A stretch of DNA of 64,000 bases, taken from contig CAWGLD010000004.1 of NCBI GenBank assembly GCA_963823335.1, positions 192,001-256,000 of the forward strand. Direction: 5' to 3'. The translations under genes and the position numbers were made by a program. The stretch is from an uncultured delta proteobacterium. Lineage in GTDB: Bacteria; Desulfobacterota; Desulfobacteria; Desulfobacterales; B30-G6. Positions 26,337 through 62,112 of the stretch are shown in pieces. Positions within the stretch are counted from its first letter, which is position 1. Every line of letters begins with the position of its first letter. The notes beneath the pieces are model-generated. The model searched no databases. It was not told the DNA's origin and worked only from the letters and a program-made list of their open reading frames with translations.

Positions 26337-26452
26337 TTGAAGAGTACCCTGCAGCAAGCTGCAGGGAATCTTCGCGGTAAGGATTTTATCTATTTGATTC
26401 GCTCGCTAACCCCGCAGCAAGCTACGGGGAATGCGCTCGCTATTGCCGTTCA
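26337..26452 (-). mobile_element. IS200/IS605-like palindromic element inserted in the 3' end of the four-helix-bundle gene
   Basis: Hairpins ccctgcagc-aa-gctgcaggg and ccccgcagc-aa-gctacgggg. Removing it restores the reading frame ...YGYTE-FDPDPDPDSDFDKI*. Confidence 0.8.
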
Positions 26453-26835
26453 GTATAGCCGTATTCCCCGAACCCTTCCTTTACGCTATAACCCCTGCCG
26501 CCCAATCGACTAAGCATTGCAGCAATGCGGTCCAATTCACCTTTGCGCTGCCGGCTTTCTACTTTATCCAAACCTTTTCCGACTACCAAGACATCTTGGA
26601 TTGCGGCACACTCCAATGCCGACCCACGCGCTATTTCGAAATATCGCCGCCGATCAGCCTTCGCTGTCTTACCGTTGCCTTCTGCAATATTAAGCGCAAT
26701 CGACTGGCTGGCTCGAAGCCACTGGTCTCTTGCTGAACGATGGACGCCTCTCAGCCTGGCACACTTTTCATAAACCCATGCGACATAGCCGATTGAAAGG
26801 CGGTAAACGTCTAATTTTTCATGACCTAATACCAT
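26440..26835 (-). CDS. four helix bundle protein (23S rRNA intervening-sequence family)
   Basis: MVLGHEKLDVY, DQWLRASQSIALNIAEGNG, YFEIARGSALEC. Confidence 0.92.
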   Translation of the reverse strand: MVLGHEKLDVYRLSIGYVAWVYEKCARLRGVHRSARDQWLRASQSIALNIAEGNGKTAKADRRRYFEIARGSALECAAIQDVLVVGKGLDKVESRQRKGELDRIAAMLSRLGGRGYSVKEGFGEYGYTERQ

Positions 26836-26836
26836 C

Positions 26837-26870
26837 TCGATCCCGATCCCGATAGCGATCCCGATTTCGA
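26837..26870 (-). repeat. TCGGGA hexamer array, 5' arm immediately before the start codon
   Basis: Minus strand reads TCGAAA TCGGGA TCGCTA TCGGGA TCGGGA TCGA, then G ATG. Confidence 0.9.
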
Positions 26871-26931
26871 CAAGGCTTCCACCAACAGCATTTCTACAAC
26901 AAATCGGGAGAAAAGCCATTTTTTTCAACTC

Positions 26932-27970: not shown

Positions 27971-29331
27971 AGACCAAAATCCATATCAAAAAAATCACCC
28001 ACCTCTTCACCAATGGCACTCACCTGCCGTTCCTCGTCGTCAATAAAACCCGCGAGGTCTCCGGAAGCCAGCAAGGCCATATGCTGAAATTTGTATTGAA
28101 CGGTTCTGACCTTTGCAAAGGGAAAGAACAGTCCCAGCGTAACCGCGACACCCAGGGAGTTGGTCAACACGAGCCTCATGTATTCGCCTGTTTTCAACCC
28201 GGCCTCAAACCGGTGATGGGACAGGCTGCTGGTGTTGAATAATAGATTGGTGGTTTTCACTGAAAAGTAAGCCAACAGGTAAAGGTAAAAAACCAGAAAT
28301 ACCAGGGCGGAAACAGGCGGCAGGAAAAAGGCGCCTAGTGTTATGAGGACAATGCCCATAAGAATCGGAACGAGGGCACCAAAATAGATTCGATAATATT
28401 CCCGTGCCGTTGCAGTATAGACAAAAGCGGTTCTACCATAAACGGTGTTTTCGACAATAAATTTCTTCTGACGAAAATAGACATAAGGAAAAAGAGCACC
28501 CAGGGTCAGGGTTGCTGCCAGCGGCCACAGAATGTATGCCTTTGCGGCGCCCATGATACTTCCCTTGAAACCGAATCGAACATTTCGAAAGGCACTGTTG
28601 CGCGAATTAAACACAAGCGACCGGACGATCAACCAGGGAAGAATCAGAATAAAAGCCAGACTCATGATACCGGAAACAAGCGGAAGCAAAGCAGACAACA
28701 CCGAGTAAAGAATAAAAAAGCCGACAACGATAAGGCGGCCTTTGAGAATCTTTACAGGATCGGCAAGATATTCAAAGCTGCTCCCAGAAAGCGTCGTATT
28801 CCCATAAAAATACCGTTTGCGTCTCACCTTGGCCCAGGCCGAGTAGATGCCGAGGGTGATGACCGACAATATAATGTTCACAAGCCAGATTTTAAAGTAT
28901 TCCGACCCCTTACCGCTGAATTCAAAGGGCACTCTGGAAAGCGCATCGCCACCCTGTTCAGATACCTGGTGGGCATCCCCCTCTTCCCCTGGAAGTGTCT
29001 GGTCTTTCATGGTCACATTTTCAGGGGGTTCAACGTCTTTCTCTGCACTTCCCCCAGCAGGAGGTATGGGCGGCACTTCTGTGGAACCGGGTTCTTTTTT
29101 GCTTCTGGTCAAGGTGACTTCCATCCCTATCTGTCTCAGGGCAGTTTCAAACTTTTTAGCGGAAATATCATCCGTGTTCTTTTTCAACGCTATTCCGCTG
29201 CTCTTGAGTATTTTCACGGCCTTTTCTTCACTGATTGAAAAAACCGCCATCAGTTTCGATTTTACGTCATCGATATTAAAACCCGGCCTAATTTTTCCAC
29301 GATAAACAACATCATAGCGTGCAGGTGTCAT
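27967..29331 (-). CDS. yjgN: YjgN / DUF898 membrane protein with N-terminal extension
   Basis: FEFSGKGSEYFKIWLVN, TLGIYSAWAKVR; usual pairing with an M48 peptidase. Confidence 0.88.
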   Translation of the reverse strand: MTPARYDVVYRGKIRPGFNIDDVKSKLMAVFSISEEKAVKILKSSGIALKKNTDDISAKKFETALRQIGMEVTLTRSKKEPGSTEVPPIPPAGGSAEKDVEPPENVTMKDQTLPGEEGDAHQVSEQGGDALSRVPFEFSGKGSEYFKIWLVNIILSVITLGIYSAWAKVRRKRYFYGNTTLSGSSFEYLADPVKILKGRLIVVGFFILYSVLSALLPLVSGIMSLAFILILPWLIVRSLVFNSRNSAFRNVRFGFKGSIMGAAKAYILWPLAATLTLGALFPYVYFRQKKFIVENTVYGRTAFVYTATAREYYRIYFGALVPILMGIVLITLGAFFLPPVSALVFLVFYLYLLAYFSVKTTNLLFNTSSLSHHRFEAGLKTGEYMRLVLTNSLGVAVTLGLFFPFAKVRTVQYKFQHMALLASGDLAGFIDDEERQVSAIGEEVGDFFDMDFGL

Positions 29332-29518
29332 GCCCCCTCCTCTCAGTATTCTGAACAAGATTGAACGGGTGAGATATCCTATGGATTGATCTATACCCCT
29401 TAACAGGGTCTCAGAACATAATCCAACATAATAAGCGCGTCGAAACTAAAAATATCACCCAAATATACATGACAGGAAAAACATGAACATCTCATCAAAG
29501 ACAGCCAACACGTGGTAG

Positions 29519-29611
29519 ATAGCTAAAGCCATAAGCTGTAAACTCTAAGCTGCTTACCGGCTATAGCTGATTGCCGACTCTTGCTGATTGCCGACAATTA
29601 ACTGATAGCTT
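29519..29611. repeat. degenerate 7-mer (AGCT-core) arrays
   Basis: agctaaagccataagctgtaaactctaagctg...ctatagctgattgccgac...ctgatagct. Similar tracts at about 36477, 38480 and 56697. Confidence 0.55.
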
Positions 29612-29619
29612 TAACCCAG
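29605..29619 (+). promoter_or_regulatory. degenerate regulon box (11/15 match) upstream of peptide 1
   Basis: ATAGCTTTAACCCAG, then 24 nt, then TTGATA at 29644. Confidence 0.55.
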
Positions 29620-29717
29620 TATAAAACCCCGATTCTGCTCTTATTGATATATGTTGGCCGATGCATATATTGTTTCTAAGCAAAAGATAATCATAACCAA
29701 CAAAAGGAGATACGGCC

Positions 29718-29855
29718 ATGACGAATACAACTGATTATGTCGAAAATGAAAAAGAAAGAGAAGAAGGACATGTCGACACCCGCAGCAAAAACTTTGAATG
29801 CGAAGACAAAGACCCCAACTTAGGGTGTGACCCGGGAATCGATGTTGCAGGATAA
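29718..29855 (+). CDS. 45-aa acidic C-x8-C peptide, copy 1 (not in the ORF track)
   Basis: MTNTTDYVENEKEREEGHVDTRSKNFECEDKDPNLGCDPGIDVAG; RBS AAGGAG; paralog at 36671. Confidence 0.88.
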   Translation: MTNTTDYVENEKEREEGHVDTRSKNFECEDKDPNLGCDPGIDVAG

Positions 29856-29900
29856 CCCAATCAACCCCATTGCCAAACCACCATTAATTCTGATTTAAGA

Positions 29901-29930
29901 CAAGGCAGGCCGCCATCCGGTCCTGCCTTG
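29901..29930 (+). terminator. hairpin after peptide 1
   Basis: caaggcagg...cctgccttg; weak U-tract. Confidence 0.55.
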
Positions 29931-30001
29931 CTAATTTCAATTTTTGATCAGCTTTTACTATTCAGGGCTCACCACGTTGAAAACCTAAACAGGAGGTCCT
30001 A

Positions 30002-30673
30002 ATGAAAAAAGTTAGTTTTTTTAAATGGAAAAGATCATCCGTGGTGGCAGTACTCAGTGCAATCTGCATCTTTTTTTTTACAACGGGCTGTTCTTTTTTC
30101 GGTATCCGAAACACCGAAGAAGCCGGCTATGCGGTTATCGATAAACGTGACCAGATCGAGATCCGGGAGTACGATGCGCTTGTGGCCGTTGAGACATTTG
30201 TGAACACCGGCTATGGGGAAGCCGGCACTATCGCTTTTAAGAAACTCTTTGCCTACATATCCGGTGAGAATATTTCAAAGACAAAGATTGCCATGACGGC
30301 ACCGGTTATCTCAAAAGAAGGGGATGCGCCGACAGGAGATAAAATTCCCATGACGAGCCCCGTTCTTGGGCAACGGCAAGCCAAGGGCTGGAGATATAGC
30401 TTCTTGCTCCCGGCAGGCTACACACTTGAGAATGCACCGTTTCCGTCTAATCCTGAAGTCAAACTCGCGGTGATACCGAGAAAAAAAGTCGCGGTGATAC
30501 GCTACTCGGGATCCTGGAAAGAGCAAACAATGCGCGAGAAATCCGAAAAACTCGTCGAATGGATCCAGGCCAATGGCCTCGAGCGCCTTTCAAGCCCTCG
30601 TTCCGCGCGATATGATCCCCCTTGGACGCTTCCGTTTTTACGTCGTAACGAGATCATGATCGACGTCAATTAG
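30002..30673 (+). CDS. SOUL heme-binding lipoprotein
   Basis: Lipobox-like TTGC, AFKKLFAYISGEN, KIAMTAPV, YDPPWTLPFLRRNEI. Confidence 0.92.
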   Translation: MKKVSFFKWKRSSVVAVLSAICIFFFTTGCSFFGIRNTEEAGYAVIDKRDQIEIREYDALVAVETFVNTGYGEAGTIAFKKLFAYISGENISKTKIAMTAPVISKEGDAPTGDKIPMTSPVLGQRQAKGWRYSFLLPAGYTLENAPFPSNPEVKLAVIPRKKVAVIRYSGSWKEQTMREKSEKLVEWIQANGLERLSSPRSARYDPPWTLPFLRRNEIMIDVN

Positions 30674-30818
30674 CTGCTTGACCAAGAGGTCATTAAATAC
30701 CAATACCATGGCTGCCAAAGCGAACTGCAATGGTTAGCATATTCCCAGGGGCGGGTCGACTATCCCAGTTAACCGGGCTGAGCGGGTTCTTCGGTACACA
30801 TTATCCAACGGGGTGATT

Positions 30819-31943
30819 ATGGGCAAGCCAGTAAAAGGGTTTATGATCGCAACGTTTCTCATTGTTGCACTGGTCTTTATTGAATCACAGTCATTGGCAG
30901 CAGAATTGTCGGTGCGCTTGGAGAACCCCCCACCCGGAGGGAACGTTCAGTTTGTATTGTTCGATTCGGCCAATACCTTCGGTGACCTTCGGGATCCGGT
31001 GAAGGTTGTGAAACTACCACTTGACGGACGTGAACGCTACCGTGTCACAGATGTCCCCCCCGGTGAGTACGCTCTCTTGGTTTACTTCGATGAAAACAAC
31101 AATGATCGACTGGACAGGAACTTCATCGGTATCCCGAAAGAACCACTGGGCTTTGCAAACCGTTACCAACCCAAAGGCCCGCCGAGCTATCAGCGTGCGG
31201 CCTTTATTTTACGTAAAGGGGAGTCACGTACCATCGACGTAGAGCTCCGCCGCCCCCTGGGAAAGCGTGGCCGCCTGGGTGTTGGCTTGGGTGTTATCGC
31301 TCAAACGAGTCCCTATCGCGATGTCACCGGCGGCGTTTATCGTGCTATCCCGGCGGTTGTCTACACGGGTGAGCGCTTGCAAATTTATGGGCCCAGAATC
31401 CAGATCGGTCTTGCCGGCAATGAAAATCTGCGTCTTGCCGCAACGGGCCGCTATCGATTTGGAACCTACGAGGAAAATGAGAGTGATTTTCTCAGGGGTA
31501 TGGGCGACAGAAAAGACACGTTCATGGCTGGTCTGGCCCTTAATGTCGAACTTCCTGGTGGAGTGAATCTTTCAACCGGGTACGCGCATGACACCCTGGG
31601 CAAGATTGGCGGGGGAGAAGGCAATATCAAAATTGACAAGTCATTCCAAATGGGTGTTTTCAGGTTCTCACCACAAATCGGGCTAAACTGGCTCAGTTCG
31701 AAGGTTGCCAACAACGATTTCGGTGTGCCAACCCGCAAGGCCACCCCAGACCGCCCTGCCTATGAACTCGATTCAATAGTCAATGTGGAGAGTGGCGTCG
31801 GGATGTTCATCGAGGTTACCCGTGACTGGCTGGTCATCTTGAACACAAGTATAGAATTTTTCGACAAAGATGTCATCGACAGCCCTATTGTCAGCGAAGA
31901 ATATATTGTCAAGGGATTGGCTGTCATTAATTATGTGTTTTGA
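30819..31943 (+). CDS. DUF2141 + MipA/OmpV outer-membrane protein fusion
   Basis: DENNNDRLDRNFIGIPKEPLGF (DUF2141-like), then a beta-barrel ending in YVF. Confidence 0.82.
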   Translation: MGKPVKGFMIATFLIVALVFIESQSLAAELSVRLENPPPGGNVQFVLFDSANTFGDLRDPVKVVKLPLDGRERYRVTDVPPGEYALLVYFDENNNDRLDRNFIGIPKEPLGFANRYQPKGPPSYQRAAFILRKGESRTIDVELRRPLGKRGRLGVGLGVIAQTSPYRDVTGGVYRAIPAVVYTGERLQIYGPRIQIGLAGNENLRLAATGRYRFGTYEENESDFLRGMGDRKDTFMAGLALNVELPGGVNLSTGYAHDTLGKIGGGEGNIKIDKSFQMGVFRFSPQIGLNWLSSKVANNDFGVPTRKATPDRPAYELDSIVNVESGVGMFIEVTRDWLVILNTSIEFFDKDVIDSPIVSEEYIVKGLAVINYVF

Positions 31944-32131
31944 TAAAAAGATAACCACTCCTTTTCTTTCTCGATATCAGTATTATAGTCTGAATGTATT
32001 GGTTACCAGCTGTAAAAAAAATGTTCTGCATAATCTCTTGGTAAAAAAGGATCCCATGGGGACATTGTTTTGACAATCACTGAAAACATGGTGATCATCT
32101 GATCATACAGGTCACTCGAAAGGAGGTTCAA

Positions 32132-32506
32132 ATGGAGCTCAAAGAATACTTTGAAAACACGGAAGGCAAAGGCGTCATGGCCACGGCAGACAGCAACGGC
32201 AAGGTGGATACGGCCATATACGCCCGGCCGCATGTCATGGATGATGGAACCATTGCCATGATCATGCGTGATCGACTCACCCATCATAATCTTGAATCCA
32301 ATTCACATGCCTGCTACATGTTTATAGAAAAAGGCCCCGGCTACAAAGGCAAGCGCCTCTTCTTGACCAAAGTGCGCGAGGAGCAGGATTCCGAATTGCT
32401 GCAGTCCCTGCGACGGCGGCAATATATCGACAAAAAGGATGCGTCTAAGTTTCTGGTATTTTTCCAGGTCGACAAAGAGCTGCCCTTGGTGGGCACCGGG
32501 AAGTAG
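32132..32506 (+). CDS. pyridoxamine 5'-phosphate oxidase family (split-barrel flavin-binding) protein
   Basis: VMATADSNGKVDTAIYARP, HHNLESN; RBS AAGGAGG. Confidence 0.8.
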   Translation: MELKEYFENTEGKGVMATADSNGKVDTAIYARPHVMDDGTIAMIMRDRLTHHNLESNSHACYMFIEKGPGYKGKRLFLTKVREEQDSELLQSLRRRQYIDKKDASKFLVFFQVDKELPLVGTGK

Positions 32507-32744
32507 ATATCCGGTTCCAGAGGGCCCGGCACTGATTCAACCCTGTAAAGGTTAATGTTACCCACATTCATCGTGTGATAAATTCTAAATCCGAGGGCCC
32601 TACCCCTGCGGGCGGGATCTTCATTTGGATCCGTCAGGCGAGGTTTGGGGGTCGTTTCGGCAAGTCATGGGAAACGCACTTGCTATTACAGTTTTGGTTA
32701 CCTACAATAGGACTTCGTCCTGAACCCATACGGATAGCGTTTCT

Positions 32745-33197
32745 ATGAAAGCAAATGAGCAGTTTCGAAAAAGAGTGGCAGAATTGTTCCGTACGCAAAA
32801 CCTGGCAACCTTGTCCACCCAGCATGCAGGGCAACCCTATGCCAGCCTGGTGGCATTCGTTGCCAGCGATGACTTGGATCGGATTTACTTCGCAACGCCA
32901 ACGACCACACGTAAATATGCAAATTTGGTCGCTGACAGTCGCGTGGCCATGCTAATCAACAGCAGTATGAACCAGACATCTGATTTTCATCGGGCTATTT
33001 CGGTGACAGCGGTGGGCAAGGCAAAAGATGTCACCGGAAAAGATAAAAAACGCATCCTGGAGCGGTACCTGGCCAAACACCCCCATCTGGAAGATTTTGT
33101 GCATTCGCCAACGTGTGCCATGGTACAGGTTTCGATTACCAGCTATTACATGGTGAAAAATTTCCAGAATGTAACGGAGCTGCACCTAAACTCATGA
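32745..33197 (+). CDS. pyridoxamine 5'-phosphate oxidase family protein
   Basis: LATLST..GQPYASLVAF, TRKYANL, YLAKHPHL. Confidence 0.85.
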   Translation: MKANEQFRKRVAELFRTQNLATLSTQHAGQPYASLVAFVASDDLDRIYFATPTTTRKYANLVADSRVAMLINSSMNQTSDFHRAISVTAVGKAKDVTGKDKKRILERYLAKHPHLEDFVHSPTCAMVQVSITSYYMVKNFQNVTELHLNS

Positions 33198-35389
33198 ACT
33201 GGATTCTAACCACCGAAGAGATCCATCCCGGCAATCGACATAGCGTCGGCGGCAAAGGATACGCCCTGTCTCTTCTGACCAAGGGGGGCTTCAAGATTCC
33301 CAGAACGATCTGCATCACCACCGATGCCTATCATGAGTATGTAAATGGGTCCGGCCTGCGTGAGCGCATCCTAATGGAACTCCATCGAAAAGATTTCAAG
33401 GAAATGCGATGGGAAGAAATCTGGGACTGCGCAACCCGCATTCGCAACTTATTCCTGACCAAACCGCTATCTACAGACCTGGTGCAGAATATTCGCGAGC
33501 ATATCGAAAAACGATTCCAGGACAGAACGGTGGCCATTCGGTCTTCGGCGCCCGAAGAAGACGACGCCCGGTCATCGTTTGCCGGGCTGCATGAATCCTT
33601 TATCAACATATCCGGTGCAGACTCGATCCTGAAACACATCCGTATGGTATGGGCCTCGCTGTGGTCGGATGCAGCTTTGCTGTATCGCCAGGAAATCGGC
33701 TTGGACGTTGAAAAGAGTTCCATGGCGGTGGTGGTACAGGAAACCGTCGCCGGTGAAAGGTCTGGCGTCGTCTTTACCCGAAACCCCAATGACGAGAACC
33801 AGGGAATTATTGAATCGATTCACGGGTTAAACCAAGGTCTTGTGGACGGCACGATTGAACCGGATCGCTGGATAATCGATCGACATAGCAACAAGATTGT
33901 TTCGCACACCTCCCCGGAACGAAAAAACTGGATCGTGCCAAACTCTAAAGGTACCCAAATGGCGGCTCTTCCGGCAGAGAAATCGGCCCAACCGCCCCTG
34001 ATCTCACAAGAGGTCGATGTCGTATTTCAAACGGCCCTTAAAGCAGAACAATTTTTTAAAATACCGCAGGATGTGGAATGGACCTATGACAAGGACGCGC
34101 TGATCCTGCTCCAATCCCGCCCCATTACGACCCTGAGCTCAGATAAATCAGATAAACCAGAAGACAATCGCGGCTGGTATCTGAGCCTGCACCGCAGCTT
34201 TGATAACCTAAAAGACCTGCGACGAAAAATTGAAAAAGAACTGATTCCAGGTATGATCGCTGAAGCTGAAAGCCTGAACGCAAAAAACCTCATAAAGATG
34301 TCGAATCGTATCTTGGCGGATGAGATCAGAAAACGTCTGGAAATCAACCACAAGTGGGTCAACATTTACTGGGCCGATTTTATTCCGTATGCCCATGGTG
34401 TAAGGTTGTTCGGACAGGTTTACAATGATGCTGTACGCCCTGATGATCCTTACGAATTCATGGATCTGCTTACCCATACCCAAATGGCCAGCATCGAGCG
34501 AAACAAGATGCTGATGGATCTGGCAGCCATCATCCGCAGGGATGAGCAATTGGCAGAGATGTTAAAGCAGGGCAATTACGACAGCCTCGATGTCAAATTT
34601 AATGTGTTGATCGATGAATTTATCGAAAAATTTGGCGACCTCTCCTGTGCGGTCACCGGTGGTAAAAATTGCGTTCTGGGAACCGGGCCACTATACCGAC
34701 TGCTGCTCGAAATGGCCAAATACCCAGCCCAGACAGGCAGCCACAGAAAAAAGAACGCAATCAAGCGATCGATTCAGAAATACTCCGATCACTTTGAAGA
34801 AGATCAGAAGGCCTGGGCCATGGAACTGCTTGATCTGGCCAGAAACAGCTATCAGTTGCGTGATGATGATAATATCTATCTTGGCCGCATCGAAGCACAA
34901 TTGCTGGCAGCCGTCCAGGAAGCAAAAAAACGCCTTGAAAACCTGGCCGGTGATCCATCCGCCAACGTGTTGCAACAGGTTATAGAAGAAGTTGATTTCG
35001 GAACCGAATCTCAGTCAACTTCCCTCGCAGAGAAGACCGAAATTGGCAGGCTTCAAGCCCGCCAACTGACCGGCCAGCCCGCCGGCCCGGGCATTTCAAA
35101 AGGCAAAGCCCGGGTGATCCGGCATCATTCCGACCTGGCAAATTTTAAACATGGCGAGGTCTTGGTGTGCGATGCCGTCGACCCCAATATTACCTTTGTT
35201 GTACCCTTGGCCACGGCCGTTGTCGAAAGAAGGGGCGGCATGTTGATTCATGGCGCCATTATCGCACGCGAATATGGCTTGCCATGTATTACCGGTGTAC
35301 CGGACGCAACCAGGTTGATCCAGACCGGTGACAACATCACCGTGGATGGATATTTGGGAATTGTAACCATCGGTGATGCCAGCTTGTAA
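33194..35389 (+). CDS. PEP-synthase/PPDK-like enzyme (ATP-grasp + central helical + phospho-His swivel domain)
   Basis: VGGKG, AIRSSAPEED..SFAGLHES, QDVEW, LQSRPIT, GGMLIHGAIIAREYGLP; ATGA overlap with the upstream gene. Confidence 0.85.
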   Translation: MNWILTTEEIHPGNRHSVGGKGYALSLLTKGGFKIPRTICITTDAYHEYVNGSGLRERILMELHRKDFKEMRWEEIWDCATRIRNLFLTKPLSTDLVQNIREHIEKRFQDRTVAIRSSAPEEDDARSSFAGLHESFINISGADSILKHIRMVWASLWSDAALLYRQEIGLDVEKSSMAVVVQETVAGERSGVVFTRNPNDENQGIIESIHGLNQGLVDGTIEPDRWIIDRHSNKIVSHTSPERKNWIVPNSKGTQMAALPAEKSAQPPLISQEVDVVFQTALKAEQFFKIPQDVEWTYDKDALILLQSRPITTLSSDKSDKPEDNRGWYLSLHRSFDNLKDLRRKIEKELIPGMIAEAESLNAKNLIKMSNRILADEIRKRLEINHKWVNIYWADFIPYAHGVRLFGQVYNDAVRPDDPYEFMDLLTHTQMASIERNKMLMDLAAIIRRDEQLAEMLKQGNYDSLDVKFNVLIDEFIEKFGDLSCAVTGGKNCVLGTGPLYRLLLEMAKYPAQTGSHRKKNAIKRSIQKYSDHFEEDQKAWAMELLDLARNSYQLRDDDNIYLGRIEAQLLAAVQEAKKRLENLAGDPSANVLQQVIEEVDFGTESQSTSLAEKTEIGRLQARQLTGQPAGPGISKGKARVIRHHSDLANFKHGEVLVCDAVDPNITFVVPLATAVVERRGGMLIHGAIIAREYGLPCITGVPDATRLIQTGDNITVDGYLGIVTIGDASL

Positions 35390-35473
35390 CAATCGGAAGG
35401 TTCATATGACAATCAGCATGAGTGAAAACGAATCATCAACCCAAAAAAACGCGAGATGGTGAGGGCTTTCAAG

Positions 35474-36424
35474 ATGGATGAAAATTTTAGAATAGGCATC
35501 AGCAGTTGTTTACTCGGAAATATGGTACGTTGGAATGCAGGCCATAAACGCGATCGCTTCCTGACAGATACCCTGGGTCGATTCGTAGAATATATTCCCG
35601 TATGCCCCGAAGTGGAAGCCGGGTTCGGTATTCCCAGGGAGTCGATGCGTCTGGTGGGCGACCCTGACAAACCGCGTCTGATAACCTTCAAAAGCAAGAC
35701 GGACGGAACCCATCAAATGACTCACTGGGCGACAGCGCGCGTCCAGGAACTCGAAAAGGAGGATTTGTGCGGCTTCATTTTCAAGAGCGATTCCCCCAGC
35801 AGCGGTATGATACGGGTAAAGGTCTACAACGACAAAGGCATGCCCGAAAAGAAAGGGGTGGGCATGTTTGCCCGGGCTTACATGGATCATTTCCCCCTCA
35901 TACCGGTGGAGGACGACGGCCGGCTGCACGACCCCGCCATCCGTGAAAATTTTATCGAGCGAATCTTTACCCTGAAACGCTGGCGGGACTTCACTGCCAA
36001 ATCACCCAAGATGGCAACCCTGATTGATTTTCATACTCGCAACAAACTTTTGTTTCTGGCACACAGCCAAAAACACTACCGTCTGATGGGAAAATTGGTG
36101 GCAGAGGGCAAGAAACTGCCCATAAAAGAGCTTCTTGACCGGTATGTGCGTCTTATGATGGAGGCATTGGCGCTCAAAACCACGACAAAGAAAAATATCA
36201 ATGTCCTGCAGCACTTGATGGGATATTTCAAAAAAGAACTGAGTGGGGATGAAAAACAGGAACTGCTCGAAATATTTGATCAATATCGTCGGGAACTGGT
36301 ACCCTTGATCGTACCCATCACCCTCGTCAATCATTATGTGCGCAAATATGACCAGCCCTATCTGAAGCATCAAACCTATCTTAACCCCCACCCGCTTGAG
36401 CTCAAACTGCGCACGCATGTGTAA
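35474..36424 (+). CDS. DUF523-DUF1722 fusion (TudS/RudS-like thiouridine desulfidase; YbgA-like)
   Basis: GISSCLLG, VCPEVEAG, KSDSPSSG, NVLQHLMGYFK, YLNPHP. Confidence 0.85.
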   Translation: MDENFRIGISSCLLGNMVRWNAGHKRDRFLTDTLGRFVEYIPVCPEVEAGFGIPRESMRLVGDPDKPRLITFKSKTDGTHQMTHWATARVQELEKEDLCGFIFKSDSPSSGMIRVKVYNDKGMPEKKGVGMFARAYMDHFPLIPVEDDGRLHDPAIRENFIERIFTLKRWRDFTAKSPKMATLIDFHTRNKLLFLAHSQKHYRLMGKLVAEGKKLPIKELLDRYVRLMMEALALKTTTKKNINVLQHLMGYFKKELSGDEKQELLEIFDQYRRELVPLIVPITLVNHYVRKYDQPYLKHQTYLNPHPLELKLRTHV

Positions 36425-36428
36425 GGGA

Positions 36429-36553
36429 AGGGTCCGAGGGTGAAAGGGTTTGAGGGTTCGAGGGTATGAGGGTGCCATAAGCCGTAAGCTGTAAAAGAGC
36501 AAAAGCCTGCAAACGATAGCTTTTTCCTTGAACCCTTGGATCCTGGAATCCTT
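36429..36553. repeat. inverted 8-mer arrays enclosing 7-mer arrays
   Basis: AGGGTCCG AGGGTGAA AGGGTTTG AGGGTTCG AGGGTATG AGGGTGCC ... ccttgaacccttggatcctggaatcctt. Confidence 0.8.
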
Positions 36554-36558
36554 AAACG

Positions 36559-36573
36559 ATAGTTTTTACCTAT
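36559..36573 (+). promoter_or_regulatory. regulon box upstream of peptide 2 and the SDR-photolyase genes
   Basis: ATAGTTTTTACCTAT, then 24 nt, then TTGATT at 36598. Confidence 0.75.
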
Positions 36574-36670
36574 TATATACCCCCCATTTCTCCCTTGTTG
36601 ATTTATTCTTGCCCATGCATAACTTATGTACAAGCAAGGGTTGAACAAAACAAACAAGGGAGGTACTACC

Positions 36671-36808
36671 ATGACAAATAAAAATGATTATGTTGAAAGC
36701 GAAGAAGAAAGAGAAGAAGGACATGTGGACACCCGTGAGAAAAATTTTGACTGCGAAAAAAAGGACCCCAAGCTGGGATGTGACCCGGGAATCGATGTGG
36801 CAGGATAA
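36671..36808 (+). CDS. 45-aa acidic C-x8-C peptide, copy 2
   Basis: MTNKNDYVESEEEREEGHVDTREKNFDCEKKDPKLGCDPGIDVAG; RBS AGGGAGG; 37/45 identical to copy 1. Confidence 0.88.
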   Translation: MTNKNDYVESEEEREEGHVDTREKNFDCEKKDPKLGCDPGIDVAG

Positions 36809-36854
36809 CCAGACAGCACGTACCCGCCAAACCCAGATAGGTATGATTTGAATC

Positions 36855-36890
36855 AAGGCAGAGCCGGAAACGGCTCTGCCTTTTTTATTT
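36855..36890 (+). terminator. rho-independent terminator
   Basis: aaggcagagccg-gaaa-cggctctgcctt followed by ttttattt. Confidence 0.85.
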
Positions 36891-36942
36891 GATCCCTATG
36901 TAAAGACCTAACAAATTACAAAAACTTAAAGGAAGTCCTGCA

Positions 36943-38487
36943 ATGAACACTGATCTTATCCTCGTGACCGGTGCCACCGGGTATGTAGGCGGGCGGTTGA
37001 TTCCTGCCTTGATAAAGGACGGTTATGGGGTACGTGCCATGGCTCGAAACCTGAATAAAATCGGATGCCGGCCCTGGGCCGGGGACTCCCGGGTGGAACT
37101 GGTTCAAGGCGATGTCCTGGATCTGAAATCGCTCAAGAAAGCAGCTTCCGGGTGCAGGGCGGCCTATTATCTGGTGCATTCCATGATCGCCCAGAAGGAT
37201 AAGTTCGCCGAGGCCGATCGCCGTGCGGCCAAAAATATGGTTGCAGCCGCATCTGACGCAGGCCTGAAAAGAATCATCTACCTTGGGGGGCTGGCGGAAA
37301 GCAAGGCAGGAATCTTGAGCAAGCATCTGAGGTCACGCATCGAAGTGGCCGAGATCCTGCAGGCCGGGCCGGTTCCCACCACCGATTTGAGGACCCCCAT
37401 GATCTTGGGTTCCGGAAGCGCTTCTTTTGAAATTCTGCGCTACCTGGTCGAACGTCTGCCCGTCATGACCACGCCCCGCTGGGTGCGCTCAATGAATCAA
37501 CCCATCGCCATTCGCAATGTCATCACCTATCTTGTGGGCTGTCTCAAACATCAGGAAACCATTGGCCAAACCTATGACATCGGTGGGCCTGATATTCTCA
37601 CCTACCGAGATCTGCTGGATATCTATGCCGAGGAAGCACGACTACCCAAACGATGGATCATACCCGTACCCGTTCTAACGCCCACACTGAGTGCCTTGTG
37701 GATTCACCTGATCAGCCCGGTACCCAAGGACATTGCCTTGCCTTTGACCGAAGGGCTGACCAGTGATGCCGTCTGTACTGAAAATCGAATTCAATCCATC
37801 ATACCCCAGCCCTTGTTGAGCTGCAGGGAAGCCATACGAATGGCTCTCGATCGTATTAAACAGGAACAGGTGCAAACCTGCTGGATGGATGCAGGCAGTT
37901 TGCTGGCACCTGAGTGGGCCCATTGCGGAGATGCTGAATGGGCCGGGGGCACGATCATGCAATGTGGCTATCGGGCCCTTTTGCAAGCACGCCCACAGGA
38001 CGTTTGGAACCCCGTGTCACGTATCGGAGGCAACACAGGCTGGTATTTTGGCAACTTTCTCTGGCGCTTGCGTGGGATCATGGACCGGTTGGCGGGGGGC
38101 GTGGGCTTGCGGCGCGGGCGTCGTCATCCCGTTGAGCTCGGTGTCGGCGACGCGTTGGACTTCTGGCGGGTACTGCTCGTAGATCCGCCTGAACGATTGC
38201 TTCTTTTAGCTGAGATGAAAATGCCCGGTGAAGCACTGCTTGAAATCCAGATCACAGAAAGCAAGAAAGGTCGAACCGAGCTCCGTTTGCTGTCCCGGTT
38301 TCTGCCCAAGGGTCTCTTGGGCATCCTCTATTGGTACGGGCTTTATCCCTTTCATCAATGGATTTTCTCGGGTATGCTCCAAGGCATTGCCAAAGCAATT
38401 CAAAAACCGGTTCTGCACGGCCCCGAAAGATTTACCCCCAAGATTACAAAGACATGTGCATTGCCATCAAAAAACATTGAGCGATAA
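36943..38487 (+). CDS. SDR family oxidoreductase with DUF2867 (YbjT-like)
   Basis: VTGATGYVGG, YYLVHSM, GSGSASFE, GDALDFWRV, AEMKMPG. Confidence 0.9.
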   Translation: MNTDLILVTGATGYVGGRLIPALIKDGYGVRAMARNLNKIGCRPWAGDSRVELVQGDVLDLKSLKKAASGCRAAYYLVHSMIAQKDKFAEADRRAAKNMVAAASDAGLKRIIYLGGLAESKAGILSKHLRSRIEVAEILQAGPVPTTDLRTPMILGSGSASFEILRYLVERLPVMTTPRWVRSMNQPIAIRNVITYLVGCLKHQETIGQTYDIGGPDILTYRDLLDIYAEEARLPKRWIIPVPVLTPTLSALWIHLISPVPKDIALPLTEGLTSDAVCTENRIQSIIPQPLLSCREAIRMALDRIKQEQVQTCWMDAGSLLAPEWAHCGDAEWAGGTIMQCGYRALLQARPQDVWNPVSRIGGNTGWYFGNFLWRLRGIMDRLAGGVGLRRGRRHPVELGVGDALDFWRVLLVDPPERLLLLAEMKMPGEALLEIQITESKKGRTELRLLSRFLPKGLLGILYWYGLYPFHQWIFSGMLQGIAKAIQKPVLHGPERFTPKITKTCALPSKNIER

Positions 38488-38582
38488 GCGATAGGCTGTA
38501 ATCTGTAAGCCGCCTACCGCTTATTGCTTATCGCTTGCAGCTTAAAGCTTAAAGCAAGAAACAAGGTGAAACATTGAATATC

Positions 38583-39959
38583 ATGCCCATTCAACCCGCT
38601 CGCATCCAGCCATTGAATAAGCACAGCATCAAAAAGGGGCGCTATGTGCTCTACTGGATGCAGCAAGCCCAGCGGGCCGAATACAACCATGCCCTGGAAT
38701 ATGCCATTCAACAGGCCAACACAATCGAACAAGGCGTACTGGTGGGCTTTGGTCTGATGGACGATTACCCGGAAGCCAACCTGCGTCATGTCACCTTTAT
38801 GCTGGAAGGACTGCGAGAAACTCAGGCCACCCTGGCCAACCAGGGGATCAAAATGGTTATCCAACACGGTTCTCCAGTGGATGTGGCTTTGTCCCTTGGG
38901 AAAAATGCCTCGTTGATCGTCTGCGATCGTGGTTACCTCAAGCATCAAAAAGCCTGGCGCACTCGTGTGGCCCTCTCGGCAGACTGCCCGGTTGTGCAGG
39001 TGGAAAGTGATGTGGTGGTACCCATAGAGATTGTCTCCAACAAAGCCGAGTATGCGGCGCGCACGATTCGCCCCAGGATACACCGGCACCTGGATGATTA
39101 TCTTGTGCCGTTACCGACCAGCAGGGTGAAAAAAAATTCACTCGGCTTAAACATCGACAGTCTGGATCTAAAGGACATTGGCACCCTTATAAAGCGTCTT
39201 TCTTTGGACCAGCAAATTGCGCCGGCAACTCAGTTTTTCAAAGGCGGCCCATCCCAGGCAATGGCAAGGTTTGAACATTTTATTCAAAAGCAGTTTCATC
39301 GCTATGTGGAAAACCGCAACCAACCCCAGACCGATGATATTTCCCACATGAGTCCCTATCTGCATTTTGGGCAGATTTCACCCCTCTACCTAGCGTTGAG
39401 AGTCAAAGCAGACAAGGGCCGTCATTGGGAGGCCCAAGAAGCCTATCTGGAAGAGTTGATCGTTCGCCGTGAGATGGCCATGAACTTTACCCATTACAAC
39501 CCCAGCTATCATTCGTTTGCCTGCCTGCCACCATGGGCCCGGAATTCATTGCAACAACACCAGCAAGACCCCCGCGAGAGCATATATACCCGCAGGCAAC
39601 TGGAAAATGCCAGAACCCACGATGCTTATTGGAACGCAGCCATGCAAGAGATGAGGATCACCGGCTTTATGCACAACTACATGCGGATGTACTGGGGGAA
39701 AAAGATACTGGAGTGGTCCAGAACGCCTATGCATGCCTTTCGAACAACCCTGGCCATCAACAATAAATATTTTATCGATGGCCGGGACCCAAACTCTTAT
39801 GCCGGGGTCGCCTGGATCTTCGGTATGCATGACCGCGCCTGGTTCGAGCGGCCGATATTTGGTAAAGTCCGCTACATGGCGGCATCCGGCCTGGAGCGAA
39901 AGTGCGACATCCAGGGATATGTGGACAAAGTTGATGCAGTCGTAAAAAGTCTGAATTAG
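38583..39959 (+). CDS. phr: deoxyribodipyrimidine photolyase, class II
   Basis: YWMQQAQRAEYNHAL, SPYLHFGQIS, GFMHNYMRMYWGKKILEW, DGRDPNSY. Confidence 0.95.
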   Translation: MPIQPARIQPLNKHSIKKGRYVLYWMQQAQRAEYNHALEYAIQQANTIEQGVLVGFGLMDDYPEANLRHVTFMLEGLRETQATLANQGIKMVIQHGSPVDVALSLGKNASLIVCDRGYLKHQKAWRTRVALSADCPVVQVESDVVVPIEIVSNKAEYAARTIRPRIHRHLDDYLVPLPTSRVKKNSLGLNIDSLDLKDIGTLIKRLSLDQQIAPATQFFKGGPSQAMARFEHFIQKQFHRYVENRNQPQTDDISHMSPYLHFGQISPLYLALRVKADKGRHWEAQEAYLEELIVRREMAMNFTHYNPSYHSFACLPPWARNSLQQHQQDPRESIYTRRQLENARTHDAYWNAAMQEMRITGFMHNYMRMYWGKKILEWSRTPMHAFRTTLAINNKYFIDGRDPNSYAGVAWIFGMHDRAWFERPIFGKVRYMAASGLERKCDIQGYVDKVDAVVKSLN

Positions 39960-39981: not shown

Positions 39982-40056
39982 TTGAAGAACCTCGCAGCAT
40001 GCGCAGCACTGCCGAACGGCAGAACCTAAGGGGAATGCGCTCGCTGTTGCGGTTCA
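39982..40056 (-). mobile_element. non-autonomous IS200/IS605-like palindromic element (75-nt form)
   Basis: Near-identical to 4154-4228. Confidence 0.75.
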
Positions 40057-41850: not shown

Positions 41851-42053
41851 TTCTCTTGATTCTCATCTGTTTGTGTGTGGTTTGTCCTATCATTCCGCTT
41901 GTCTTTTTCTGATATTGATTTATGACGATTCATGCTCAATATATATAGTTAATAAATGTGTCCCGAGTCAAACACGCGACGCCAACACCAATCGGAATGC
42001 TGTTATGACAATAACGACAGCTTTCATACCCGTTATGGTATAGAGGTGAATTT

Positions 42054-45461: not shown

Positions 45462-46676
45462 TCAGCCGGATTGTTTTCTACCCCAGACCGCATACAGCGG
45501 ATCCGAATAAACAAATTCAGGAAAGTATTTGTCATCATGCGGCCGTGGCAGACCCCGCATGGAATAGGTATGCAAGCCTTCGAACGCCTCGGTTTGCATG
45601 AAGTACTCCAGTACCAGCCCCATGCGTTCGAACTCGTGCAGCTCCGTCCACAGTCGTATGGCCTTGGTGGGAAACCAGCGGTTGGAAAATGTGACCACCA
45701 GACAGCCACCCGGTTTCAGGACCCGGGCCACCTCGTCAAAAACCGTCAAGGGATCGATGAGGTACTCCACCGAAACCGTGCAGAGGACAGCGTCAAAAAC
45801 ATTGGCGTCATAAGGTAGCCGTGGATTGGCGTTTAAATCCTGAACAATCGATTCGGTCAATTGGCGGTTGCGGTTCAGCTCGCTTTGATTGAGTCCCAGC
45901 CCCACCAGACGTTTCAAGCGATGGCGCCTGGGGATGTGAGACTGCCAGCTGCCCATGAGATCGAGCACCTGCATGTCATCGCCCAAAAAACGGTTGTAGG
46001 TGTTTTTCACCATGGACAAGGCCGTGTCGTCCAGGTGCTGCGTAAAACGCGGTTTGCGGTAAAAAAGAGCATCATTTGTTGAATCTTGGCGCTCAAATGC
46101 GACGTCATTCAGGTAATCGGAGGCCTGATCAAGCCATCGTGCCTGCATCCCGGGACCGTCGGTGAGCCGCTCCATCCAGTCGATACTGGTACCGCCACGC
46201 TCGATCTGCTTGGGTTCGATTTTCCCGATAATGGTCGAAAGATGCAGATCCTTATCGGCCAAGGGATGGTTGAAATCGACGGAAAGGTTGCCGTTGTTGA
46301 TCCCGACACATCGAAACGGGGTTATGTTGTTCCTGAAAACCCCACGGACGTCAGTTAAGAGCCCTTTGGGATAAAAGCGCCCCATCCGGGGGTTTGCCTG
46401 ATGAATTCCCACCCGGTCCGCATTAAACTGTCTGCGCTTAATCTTCATCAATTGGCGTGTTTCAAAGGCCGGGACTGCCTGTCCGCTGTCGAAACTCAGC
46501 AGGATGTCATCTCCCCCTTGCCTGCCCATGAGACGCTCGCCCAGACCTGCTGGAAGTATATCCCGCCACATGTTGGCCTGGTTGGCTTGAAAACAGTCTG
46601 TATGGGTTACATTACCACTTTTCCACTTGAGCTGAAAAAGCAGATCGACTTTGCTGTCTGTATCGATTCGTTTCAT
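45462..46676 (-). CDS. class I SAM methyltransferase with SlyD/FKBP-like N-terminal region
   Basis: VDFNHPLA in the N-half; FYRKPRFTQHLD, VLDLMGSWQSH, TFSNRWFPTKA in the C-half; RBS GGAGG. Confidence 0.8.
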   Translation of the reverse strand: MKRIDTDSKVDLLFQLKWKSGNVTHTDCFQANQANMWRDILPAGLGERLMGRQGGDDILLSFDSGQAVPAFETRQLMKIKRRQFNADRVGIHQANPRMGRFYPKGLLTDVRGVFRNNITPFRCVGINNGNLSVDFNHPLADKDLHLSTIIGKIEPKQIERGGTSIDWMERLTDGPGMQARWLDQASDYLNDVAFERQDSTNDALFYRKPRFTQHLDDTALSMVKNTYNRFLGDDMQVLDLMGSWQSHIPRRHRLKRLVGLGLNQSELNRNRQLTESIVQDLNANPRLPYDANVFDAVLCTVSVEYLIDPLTVFDEVARVLKPGGCLVVTFSNRWFPTKAIRLWTELHEFERMGLVLEYFMQTEAFEGLHTYSMRGLPRPHDDKYFPEFVYSDPLYAVWGRKQSG

Positions 46677-46788
46677 TTTGGTTCCTCCATGATGATAGCG
46701 CTTCATGATCGGGACGTCCTGTTTCTCACTCGTCAAAATATATAAACGAAACATCACAATTCAATAGGGGAAGGATAAGGTTAAGTTG

Positions 46789-46803
46789 ATAGGTAAAAAC
46801 TAT
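46789..46803 (-). promoter_or_regulatory. regulon box upstream of the methyltransferase operon
   Basis: Minus strand ATAGTTTTTACCTAT (identical to 36559-36573), then 24 nt, then TTGAAT. Confidence 0.75.
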
Positions 46804-46887
46804 TAACAATGGCAGCCACAAGCATAAAACATTTAGGAGTATATTGCTTAATGCTTAGGTTATAGTTCTTGAAAAAAATCATCCCTG

Positions 46888-47790
46888 TTAGCTCAGGGAC
46901 ATCAGATACGAGCGTAGATTTGTTTGCTTGTTGGTGAGACCAAACTTGGTACGCAGATTTTTGCGGTGAAAATTGACGGTTGCCTCGGAAACGATCAGAA
47001 TATCGGCAATTTCTTTGCTGGTTTTGCCATCCTTGACAAGGGTTGCCACCTGCATTTCCTGGGGCGTCAGGAGAATATTGGCGTTGGTCAGATTCTGCAT
47101 CAGGGGTGTAATGATATCCTGCAGGTGAGCGTCTATAATTTCTACCAGGATCTTGTCCTTGGCTTTTAAAGGCACATTTTTCAGTTTTTCCACGTAGGGC
47201 AGAACCAAGCCCTTGATGTTGGTCAAAAAGCGCTTTTCAAGTTCGCGTCTGTCCTCTTCCCGCTGCTTCAAAAGAACTTTCAGGGCCACATTGGCTTCTT
47301 CCAGCCCCTGCTTTTGATCATGGAGTTTCTCTTGACTCTCCAAAAGCGCCTGCTCGGTGAGTTTCAAGGCTGTAATTTCTTCATGACTGACCACGACCCG
47401 CACTGGATCCGTATCCGGAATACGGATCACCCGCATGTAAAACCAGTGCTGGCTTCCGGGCTGATGGCAGGGGTAATCGTATAAAAACTCATCCAGTTGC
47501 TTGTCGATAACAGCCCGAATGCCCGTAGCCACCTTACAGGCATCCTGGCTGTCATTCCCGCTGGTGATGTCACAGGTAGAAAGATAATTAACGCCATGGA
47601 AGTTATGACCGGGAGGCAAGCCCCCCTGGGTGGCGTGATTCTGCCAGGCACGGTTGGTCGCCCGAATAACGCCGTCGTGGTCCAGAATGGCGATGTGCGC
47701 GGACAAAGCATCAAAAGCGAAGCGGGCCAGAGATTCCGAGAAATGAAGGGTTTCAGGATTTGGGGTGGTATCGGTGGGGTGAATCGTCAT
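46888..47790 (-). CDS. PAS-domain LuxR-family transcriptional regulator
   Basis: PAS (HIAILDHDGVIRATNRAW...NYL..C...YPCH...WF), coiled coil, HTH LTPQEMQVA...KEIA...TVNFHRKNLRTK. Confidence 0.9.
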   Translation of the reverse strand: MTIHPTDTTPNPETLHFSESLARFAFDALSAHIAILDHDGVIRATNRAWQNHATQGGLPPGHNFHGVNYLSTCDITSGNDSQDACKVATGIRAVIDKQLDEFLYDYPCHQPGSQHWFYMRVIRIPDTDPVRVVVSHEEITALKLTEQALLESQEKLHDQKQGLEEANVALKVLLKQREEDRRELEKRFLTNIKGLVLPYVEKLKNVPLKAKDKILVEIIDAHLQDIITPLMQNLTNANILLTPQEMQVATLVKDGKTSKEIADILIVSEATVNFHRKNLRTKFGLTNKQTNLRSYLMSLS

Positions 47791-48072
47791 GGGTTTGTTC
47801 CTCTTGAGATCGGTTGTTGGCAATAAATTGAACAATACACCAATTGGCCTATTGTTTCAATCAATGGATCGTTTGCAACCATTCACGCGGCTATCTTGGA
47901 TACCCATCCGTTTTCATCTGCATCGGCTCTGTAAAGATCCGTGTATCTGGCAGCTACAACCCGGTTGACAGGTCATCATTCCTCGGGTAAGAATTAATGT
48001 AATCATTCTTCTTATAGCGTTCTATAATATACTCTTCCCATAAATTTAGCGAGTCAAATGGAGGAAACCCGG

Positions 48073-51562: not shown

Positions 51563-52697
<1,135 letters not shown>

Positions 52698-61708: not shown

Positions 61709-61808
61709 AGATATTTCCTTTCAAATTTCGGGTCTGAACCGAATCTTTTTCCTACAATATTTAGCATTCTGTAACCAAATGCAACATGAGATGAATAGGG
61801 GGTTAACA

Positions 61809-61823
61809 ATAGGTAATACCTAT
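61809..61823 (-). promoter_or_regulatory. regulon box, near-perfect palindrome, in the divergent CHI/DUF2177 spacer
   Basis: ATAGGTAATACCTAT; on the minus strand, 24 nt later comes TTGCAT. Confidence 0.75.
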
Positions 61824-62112
61824 TATAAAAAGACGAACTGAAACAACACGTAATTCCGCTGCTGGAGAACCGTCCCTTGCTTTTTCTGGCGGCATTATCC
61901 TATTATTACCTGAACTGAGCGATTTTTCCCGAAGAGATGTGCCAAGATCTTGAGGGAGGAGGGTACGCAAAAAATGTAAGCATACCCGTGGATCTGTCGA
62001 GGCTTTTTGCGAACCCTTGATTCGCAAGAGATTGGTGCAGATCGAGATAAAAATTGCTCAGTTCGGGTATTATTAAGGTCAATTAATTTTCTTCGTCCAT
62101 TGTGAGGTAAAA

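Follow-up and report, generated by a model that had tools for sequence, protein, structure and literature searches.

CP12 proteins are conditionally disordered, redox-switched regulators of glyceraldehyde-3-phosphate dehydrogenase and phosphoribulokinase in oxygenic phototrophs, and carry an AWD-VEEL core and a C-terminal cysteine pair that forms a redox loop. Here we describe two 45-residue peptides that recall CP12, encoded by two genes (copies A and B) in a 64,000-nucleotide (nt) stretch of DNA, hereafter the window, from an uncultured delta proteobacterium of the order Desulfobacterales (assembly GCA_963823335.1, contig CAWGLD010000004.1, positions 192,001 to 256,000). Like CP12, these peptides are small, acidic and poorly structured, have a cysteine pair separated by eight residues, and are plausibly linked to light or redox conditions. 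However, they are about half the size of CP12, have only one cysteine pair and belong to non-photosynthetic anaerobes; neither translation nor the family consensus contains the AWD-VEEL core, and none of 57 family members matches the Pfam CP12 model at E<=10. The comparison with CP12 drawn in the original prediction therefore holds as an analogy, but not as homology.

In its gene content the window overlaps with the light regulons of LitR/CarH systems and with the regulon of sigma-E/ChrR (extracytoplasmic function group ECF11; PMC6852236 and PMC7380195). The overlap includes a photolyase, an ufaD/ufaO/ufaM-like gene trio, a lipocalin, and DUF1295 and chalcone-isomerase-like genes. On the other hand, neither a ChrR-type cupin (PF12973) nor a MerR hit beside a B12-binding hit was found in the source genome, which is 93.9% complete, and the promoters described below consist of a palindromic box followed by TTGnnn-16/17-TAnnnT, not of the ECF11-type sequence TGATCC-N15-GCGTA. 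Among small coding genes, the nearest comparisons are analogous and not related by descent. One is Pos19 of Rhodobacter sphaeroides, which, in the accessible part of PMC5036791, is likewise a short stand-alone transcript with an open reading frame (ORF) of 45-50 codons, a stress-regulon promoter of its own and a terminator. However, according to the same text Pos19 has been found in R. sphaeroides strains only and acts as an RNA, whereas the peptide gene is spread through an order and is selected at the protein level, and its predicted promoter is of an activator plus sigma-70 type instead of the TGATCC-N15-GCGTA type of Pos19. The gene of the small DUF1127 protein CcaF1 with its CcsR RNAs, also part of a photo-oxidative stress response, has conserved hairpins in the 3' region of its transcript (PMC8034643, accessible part), but our peptides have no DUF1127 match in Pfam searches and come from different taxa. 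Stress-regulon microproteins as such are already known; what is new here is a microprotein family without a name in the databases, the design of its operator and promoter, and a candidate regulator.

Two paralogous genes of a microprotein family

Copies A and B (Table 1) are paralogous genes of one unannotated family of acidic microproteins. As predicted originally, their translations are identical at 37 of 45 positions, leaving eight amino acid differences, and both contain the stretch EREEGHVDTR, the C-x8-C motif and the tail LGCDPGIDVAG. The pair was also returned by the repeat finder as a 163-nt direct repeat with 82% identity. In an alignment of positions 29560-29960 with 36513-36913, which has one gap each at columns 35 and 144, about 108 ungapped columns including the box precede the ATG, somewhat more than the 80 bp that had been noticed before, and the alignment resumes over the downstream hairpin. 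A GGAG-type ribosome-binding site lies ahead of each copy, and an AAGGCAG...CTGCCTT hairpin follows each. Each gene forms a short unit of its own, in which a 19-bp palindromic box and a spacer of exactly 22 nt lead to a sigma-70-type promoter, followed by a strong ribosome-binding site, the ORF and the hairpin. Only the hairpin of copy B is followed by a T-run and was called as a terminator; that of copy A was not called and is probably a leaky terminator.

Table 1. Positions in the window of the peptide genes, their control elements and the neighbouring genes discussed in the text
Feature	Coordinates	Strand	Evidence or remark
Box A, degenerate copy of the palindrome	29603..29621	+	21.5 bits, hit at 29600; -35 TTG exactly 22 nt after
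Copy A promoter, TTGATA-16 nt-TATATT	29644..29671	+	Best sigma-70-like match in 29300-38700, 10/12 positions
Microprotein gene, copy A	29718..29855	+	45 amino acids, isoelectric point (pI) 4.2
Hairpin after copy A	29902..29929	+	Without T-run; absent from the terminator-like sites called
Genes for SOUL (haem-binding-like) and DUF2141+MipA proteins, after copy A	30002..31943	+	Pfam
PPDK_N/PEP-utilizer (phosphoenolpyruvate (PEP)-synthase-like) enzyme	33113-35389		Pfam
Box B	36557..36575	+	Best matrix hit in genome, 26.9 bits; 22-nt spacing to -35
Copy B promoter, TTGATT-16 nt-TAACTT	36598..36625	+	Same register as 21 other box promoters
Microprotein gene, copy B	36671..36808	+	45 amino acids, pI 4.4
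Intrinsic terminator of copy B	36855..36882	+	12-bp stem and T-run; top terminator-like site in region
Genes for NmrA+DUF2867 protein and class II photolyase, after copy B	36943..39959	+	Pfam, NCBIfam
MT431, FKBP-like N-terminal part and S-adenosylmethionine (SAM)-methyltransferase domain	45462..46757	-	Pfam
Box before MT431	46787..46805	-	26.0 bits; -35 TTGAAT at 46764-46759, 22 nt after box
PAS-LuxR regulator (PAS_4 and GerE helix-turn-helix (HTH)), candidate box-binding activator	46888..47835	-	Pfam; HTH closest to RhlR/SdiA/LasR
Box before chalcone-isomerase-like/MFS_2/DUF1295 operon	61807..61825	-	22.4 bits; TTGCAT 22 nt after

The likeness of the pair exceeds chance: the coding sequences differ at 22 of 135 bases, and the proportion of differing sites is 0.44 at synonymous (pS) against 0.10 at nonsynonymous positions (pN), which bears out the original remark on many synonymous differences. 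The corresponding substitution rates (dN 0.106, dS 0.665) give a dN/dS of about 0.16 and indicate purifying selection. Since copy A is 91% identical to proteins of other organisms but only 82% identical to copy B, the duplication is old. Among 17 family members of 45 amino acids, pS reaches 0.79, so that synonymous sites are saturated, against a pN of 0.195. At invariant residues of the 34 genes compared (those of the window and of relatives), all four glycine, six arginine, five leucine and four valine codons in question are used. This free synonymous variation indicates selection on the protein and not on the RNA; judging from these substitution patterns, both ORFs are genuine protein genes and the family is under protein-level purifying selection.

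A word-indexed protein search returned 341 homologs at E<=0.01. The 120 matches listed are 44-79 amino acids long, 73-91% identical, and named hypothetical or not at all; the organism names among them are Desulfobacterales, Desulfobacter and Olavius Delta-1 symbionts. One member, HRM2_00300, comes from a strain in culture, Desulforapulum autotrophicum HRM2. When 1.84 billion representative proteins were searched with a profile, no more than 118 clusters were recovered, and all but one of them are short. By whole-genome searches the family occurs in 54 of 201 genomes and 36 of 125 genera of the Desulfobacterales-type order. In a sample of 401 genomes of the phylum five have a match, the source genome (G000; G and L numbers denote genomes and loci of our comparison) included, and all five are among the 14 genomes of this order, while none of the 387 genomes of other orders carries the family; nor was it found in plasmid or phage collections. 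Within these searches the family was found in this order only. The source genome has two copies, and genomes elsewhere often have two to six, with up to six matches per genome; multi-copy loci are often tandem, forming arrays of two or three copies with spacers of 50-80 nt.

Conservation runs from residue 7 to the last, variation being confined to the first six residues or so. In an alignment of 57 sequences 16 positions are invariant and six more nearly so, including an invariant G-H-x-D-x-R, the C-x8-C motif and a C-terminal G-I-D-V-[AQP]-G. Over 121 members, exactly two cysteines spaced by eight residues are found in 119 and the terminal V-[AQP]-G in 120, the histidine is invariant, and the pI ranges from 4.05 to 4.77. 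No family match was found in Pfam, NCBIfam, the PDB sequences or the ESM Atlas; when the 57 members were compared with Pfam by hmmscan at E<=10, the sole hit was that of one member to a phage family (E 0.025). Only 11 proteins are longer forms, of 84-134 amino acids, which we read as over-extended ORF calls. A metagenomic protein of 268 amino acids (P0225) has an apparent membrane helix and coiled coil and a peptide-like C-terminal module, and is either a real fusion or a gene-calling artefact. The AlphaFold2 model of the peptide has low confidence (mean pLDDT 67.7, pTM 0.25) and shows two short helices, along with a single bridge inside the cysteine loop. Literature searches by the C-terminal motif and by HRM2_00300 found no paper, and broader term searches found nothing on the protein; the control circuit described in the next section was not found in the literature searched either.

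At the RNA level, no constraint was seen inside the ORF in the 34 genes compared, Rfam gave no match across the whole window, and the predicted transcripts, the terminator apart, fold ordinarily relative to shuffled sequences (z -1.40 and -1.35). Both genes are covered by contigs of at least 90% likeness in all four estuary metatranscriptome libraries, in which DNA can also occur, and one contig of 489 nt covers positions 29735-30222, from peptide A into the SOUL gene; contig depth and uncovered parts were not used for ranking expression. The sequence of the terminator stem is kept: by our reading of the relatives' sequences its 3' arm ends in CTGCC followed by T's in 20 of 29 terminal copies, and GGCAG...CTGCC hairpins are rare in the source genome. 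Furthermore, in 10 of 37 copies the terminator 5' arm occurs a second time, 5-20 nt past the stop codon; loci of relatives with this extra arm are L024, L025, L027, L028, L031, L033, L034, L037, L020 and L021. Its pairing with the terminator 3' arm is 11/11 in all six units computed, with covariation in L025 and L033. Neither window copy is followed by this extra arm, which could have been left over from a duplication or offer an alternative way of pairing.

The box-promoter and its candidate regulator

The family members share an upstream palindrome, the 19-bp box TGATAG-N7-CTATCA. We built a weight matrix from 20 peptide sites and scanned the whole source genome with it. The five top intergenic hits lie, in descending order, before copy B, in the gap between the PAS-LuxR and MT431 genes, before a 48-residue membrane-protein small ORF (sORF) on contig 5 (L043:3203-3349, 25.2 bits), before the chalcone-isomerase-like operon, and before copy A. 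The remaining hits score at most 19.4 bits; those below about 20 bits were treated as noise, being mostly within genes or beside genes unrelated to the regulon. At 22 of 24 sites the distance from the box to a TTG is exactly 22 nt, and a TAnnnT hexamer comes 16-17 nt further on; this 22-nt spacing is kept at all eight sites that do not belong to peptide genes. A spacing this fixed suggests an activator in contact with RNA polymerase. A first promoter pattern, TTGAT...ATGCATA, had no match in the window. Judging by the matrix and the spacing, the box-promoter defines a small predicted regulon consisting of both peptide genes, MT431, the chalcone-isomerase-like operon and the membrane sORF. In relatives the box is also found before MT431 (L031, L039 and L040) and before an operon for an amine oxidase, a DUF1365 protein and a cyclopropane fatty acid (CFA) synthase (L031). 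In a genome of the same genus (G198, L023), which has no peptide there, a box-promoter precedes genes for a fasciclin-type lipoprotein and a SOUL protein; this SOUL gene (L023:1629-2293) matches in three consecutive frames, which indicates frameshifts or assembly errors.

Two further hydrophobic sORFs, L037:10019-10102(-) and L038:9863-9955(-), lie directly after a peptide gene and resemble the L043 sORF, which has its own box-promoter, in their cysteine-containing basic tails. None of the three has a family match, and they may represent a second class of microproteins in the same regulon. Outside the peptide units are tandem arrays of degenerate 7-8-nt words, at 29528-29600 (upstream of box A), 36428-36553 and 38480-38560 (after the NmrA gene), which account for the upstream similarity around 29528, 36474 and 38488 and are not part of the unit. 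The words make up hairpin arms, such as 36428-36455 with 36526-36553 in the array that immediately precedes box B. Another motif, of about 24 nt and containing TGACAAT, occurs at 32056-32079, 35392-35415 and 41991-42014; the PNPOx-like, YbgA and lipocalin genes start 63-76 nt after it. This motif may be another promoter or operator of this region, distinct from the box.

The gene next to the box of MT431 encodes a PAS-LuxR protein, which is likely the activator of the regulon, judging from its position and distribution. Its gene adjoins the box-MT431 promoter in the window, L031 and L039; of the 44 genomes that have both genes, 21 have them no more than about 1 kb apart by our reading of the coordinates. 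The arrangement recalls LuxR-type activators with palindromic, lux-box-like operators (RhlR, LasR and SdiA), which have the most similar HTH: the box, too, is a palindrome of about 19 bp that keeps a constant distance from the promoter, and the regulator gene lies beside it. However, PAS-LuxR has a PAS_4 sensor in place of the autoinducer-binding domain, and the centre of the box, which is a predicted operator, lies further upstream, at about -67 by our count. A photoreceptor of the light-oxygen-voltage (LOV) type was considered for PAS-LuxR and dropped, as the translation shows no LOV-type cysteine motif.

Across the 201 genomes of the order, 33 have both the peptide and a full-length PAS-LuxR, 21 the peptide only, 18 the regulator only and 129 neither. 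When genomes were grouped post hoc by the box, PAS-LuxR was found in 17 of 19 with a box-bearing peptide gene, the two exceptions being at most 87% complete, and in none of five whose peptide genes are box-less (G037, G054, G156, G160 and G196). MT431 occurs in 79 genomes, including 41 of the 54 with the peptide, and class II photolyase in 64, including 34 of the 54 by our own count of the overlap. In 10 genomes the distance from the peptide gene to PAS-LuxR or MT431 is at most 10 kb. Since orthologs of MT431 align from residue 17-28 onward, its true start is probably the ATG at about 46706. Several orthologs (in G112, G088, G130, G166, G052, G120 and others) contain a single in-frame TGA, and MT431 weakly matches a model of a methyltransferase selenoprotein family; MT431 may be a selenoprotein in some genomes.

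Neighbouring genes and synteny

Genes of a stress type are numerous in the window: besides the SOUL, DUF2141+MipA, PEP-synthase-like, NmrA+DUF2867 and class II photolyase genes, there are two PNPOx-like genes and a YbgA (DUF1722) gene. Further genes encode an FAD/NAD(P)-binding protein, a lipocalin, an Usp protein, an amine oxidase with a DUF1365 protein and a CFA synthase, and DUF2177 and DUF1499 proteins, and the chalcone-isomerase-like/MFS_2/DUF1295 operon belongs to the same set. We take UfaO to be linked to DUF1365. The amine oxidase/DUF1365/CFA synthase trio resembles ufaD/ufaO/ufaM of furan fatty acid synthesis as described in the accessible part of PMC7380195, and furan-fatty-acid genes belong to the sigma-E/ChrR core regulon according to that of PMC6852236, the reference list of which also contains a title reporting that the photolyase gene phrA of Rhodobacter sphaeroides is sigma-E-dependent. 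In other bacteria the genes of this set, with its photolyase and furan-fatty-acid-type members, are induced by light or singlet oxygen.

We compared 27 window proteins with 20 loci of 20 kb by tblastn, and searched Pfam with 126 ORFs around 15 loci. The gene order of the window is kept only in the two closest relatives; three further loci have MT431, PAS-LuxR, PNPOx or photolyase genes beside the peptide, and 15 of the 20 share no neighbour with the window. No enzyme class or maturase recurs beside the peptide in these loci, and this lack of conserved synteny and of a recurring enzyme argues against a dedicated maturase. Attenuation by a leader peptide was also rejected, because the amino acids are conserved and in most of the loci no operon in the same orientation follows. 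The original view of a conserved and probably highly expressed microprotein that has its own promoter and terminator and heads a block of stress genes is supported by the selection on its sequence, the 341 homologs, the geometry of the box-promoter and the RNA-library contigs.

Three other features of the window are recorded here. A 34-nt repeat family occupies three intergenic places (26419-26452, 32662-32695 and 40023-40056). A gene at 26440-26928 (-) encodes a four-helix bundle of the 23S rRNA intervening-sequence type. At 51563-52673 (-), two adjacent ORFs match only positions 473-724 (C-terminal) and 4-101 (N-terminal) of the model for the catalase-peroxidase KatG, which looks like a katG remnant with its middle missing.

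Proposed function and alternatives

We propose, with a probability of about one half, that the peptide is a free-standing stress microprotein with a His/Cys2 thiol or metal centre, which is made in bulk under the control of the box. In this model, light and/or oxidants would be the trigger, PAS-LuxR would activate the regulon by way of the box, and the leaky hairpin of copy A would let its promoter also feed the downstream stress genes. Most tentatively, the peptide would act unmodified and stoichiometrically as a thiol-based stress protein, with His18, Cys28 and Cys37 as the reactive centre, in the form of a metal-thiolate site and/or a C28-C37 disulfide loop, and its chain would fold only on binding a metal or a partner. 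A stoichiometric role is suggested by the tandem arrays, the up to six matches per genome and the strong ribosome-binding sites. The invariant histidine and cysteine pair, the flanking glycines, the acidic chain and the weak structural model suggest a thiol or metal site through which the chain would become ordered upon binding. The redox or metal binding anticipated in the original prediction is consistent with the near-universal C-x8-C motif and the invariant histidine.

Several points weigh against this proposal. The inducing signal is guessed from the neighbouring genes. Only two cysteines and one histidine are available, C-x8-C is no classic metal knuckle, and the low-confidence model neither supports nor excludes a fold. 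The RNA-library contigs over the peptide genes are no proof of transcription. With regard to the regulator, a full-length PAS-LuxR is missing from 21 of the 54 genomes with the peptide and present in 18 genomes that have no peptide, and the groups with and without the box, besides being post hoc, consist of related genomes that are not independent. Finally, the conserved terminator stem and the extra 5' arm hint at a function at the RNA level that the proposal does not account for.

A sharper form of the proposal, which we consider possible though rather unlikely, would make the peptide a conditional inhibitor in the manner of CP12: with its C28-C37 loop oxidised, it would dock on an enzyme or complex that is conserved in sulfate reducers and sensitive to oxygen, and keep it silent until conditions recover. 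The 22 invariant or nearly invariant positions of the 45 include glycine, asparagine, phenylalanine, leucine, isoleucine and valine residues that are not ligands, which fits a binding interface, and the acidic, poorly structured chain with its invariant C-x8-C fits as well. Since some genomes have the peptide but no PAS-LuxR or MT431, any partner would have to be a widespread protein. However, the loci compared have no conserved neighbour, the peptide is no CP12 homolog, and a regulator would not need a high copy number. The full analogy, that of a non-homologous CP12 counterpart in non-photosynthetic sulfate reducers, namely a conditionally disordered cysteine-loop microprotein that would be made in large amounts under light or oxygen stress by way of a PAS-LuxR/box circuit not described before, and whose oxidised form would reversibly shut off a core oxygen-sensitive enzyme of anaerobic energy metabolism, seems to us doubtful.

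It is quite improbable that the peptide is instead a feedback modulator, a small acidic protein that is induced by PAS-LuxR and would bind and damp it, much as TraM acts on TraR. The peptide gene is the strongest of the box-controlled genes, its product is acidic, and it is physically linked to PAS-LuxR in G028, G107, G095 and G075. However, in the 21 peptide genomes without a full-length PAS-LuxR the peptide gene is box-less and yet conserved, and arrays of up to three copies are unexpected for a feedback inhibitor. We give a similarly small chance to a dual-function transcript, in which the RNA of about 260 nt, or its 3' end, would also serve as a regulatory RNA in the way of Pos19, a small coding RNA of the singlet-oxygen regulon (PMC5036791, accessible part). 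This would account for a terminator stem whose sequence is kept although such hairpins are rare in the genome, and for the covarying extra arm; against it stand the ORF free of RNA-level constraint, the lack of an Rfam match, the ordinary fold z-scores and the lack of the extra arm behind both window copies.

Least probable of all, and disfavoured as a claim of the original prediction, is that the peptide is the precursor of a modified peptide made by ribosomes, or of a cofactor derived from a peptide, and that its maturase is encoded elsewhere, MT431, a radical SAM enzyme and the PEP-synthase-like enzyme being examples. In favour of this the small size, the tandem multi-copy genes, the invariant C-terminal glycine, the presence of a PPDK_N/PEP-utilizer enzyme in the window and the position of MT431 directly upstream in G074 and G085 could be adduced, but it is at odds with the absence of a recurring enzyme class from the 20 loci, the adjacency of the PEP-synthase-like gene to the peptide only in the two closest relatives, the occurrence of 13 peptide genomes without MT431 and 38 genomes with MT431 but no peptide, the lack of fused forms, and conservation over the whole length with no split into a variable core and a conserved leader.

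The proposal of a thiol or metal stress microprotein bears on sulfate reducers of tidal and estuarine sediments, which meet daily pulses of light and oxygen and whose protective responses are poorly mapped. The candidate regulator appears to fill the role that ChrR or LitR systems have in other bacteria, and the fixed spacing of the box-promoter lets the whole regulon be predicted from sequence. The member in the cultured strain Desulforapulum autotrophicum HRM2 makes the family directly testable. Should the peptide turn out to buffer metals or to inhibit by means of a thiol switch, a new small-protein mechanism would be added to the stress biology of anaerobes.

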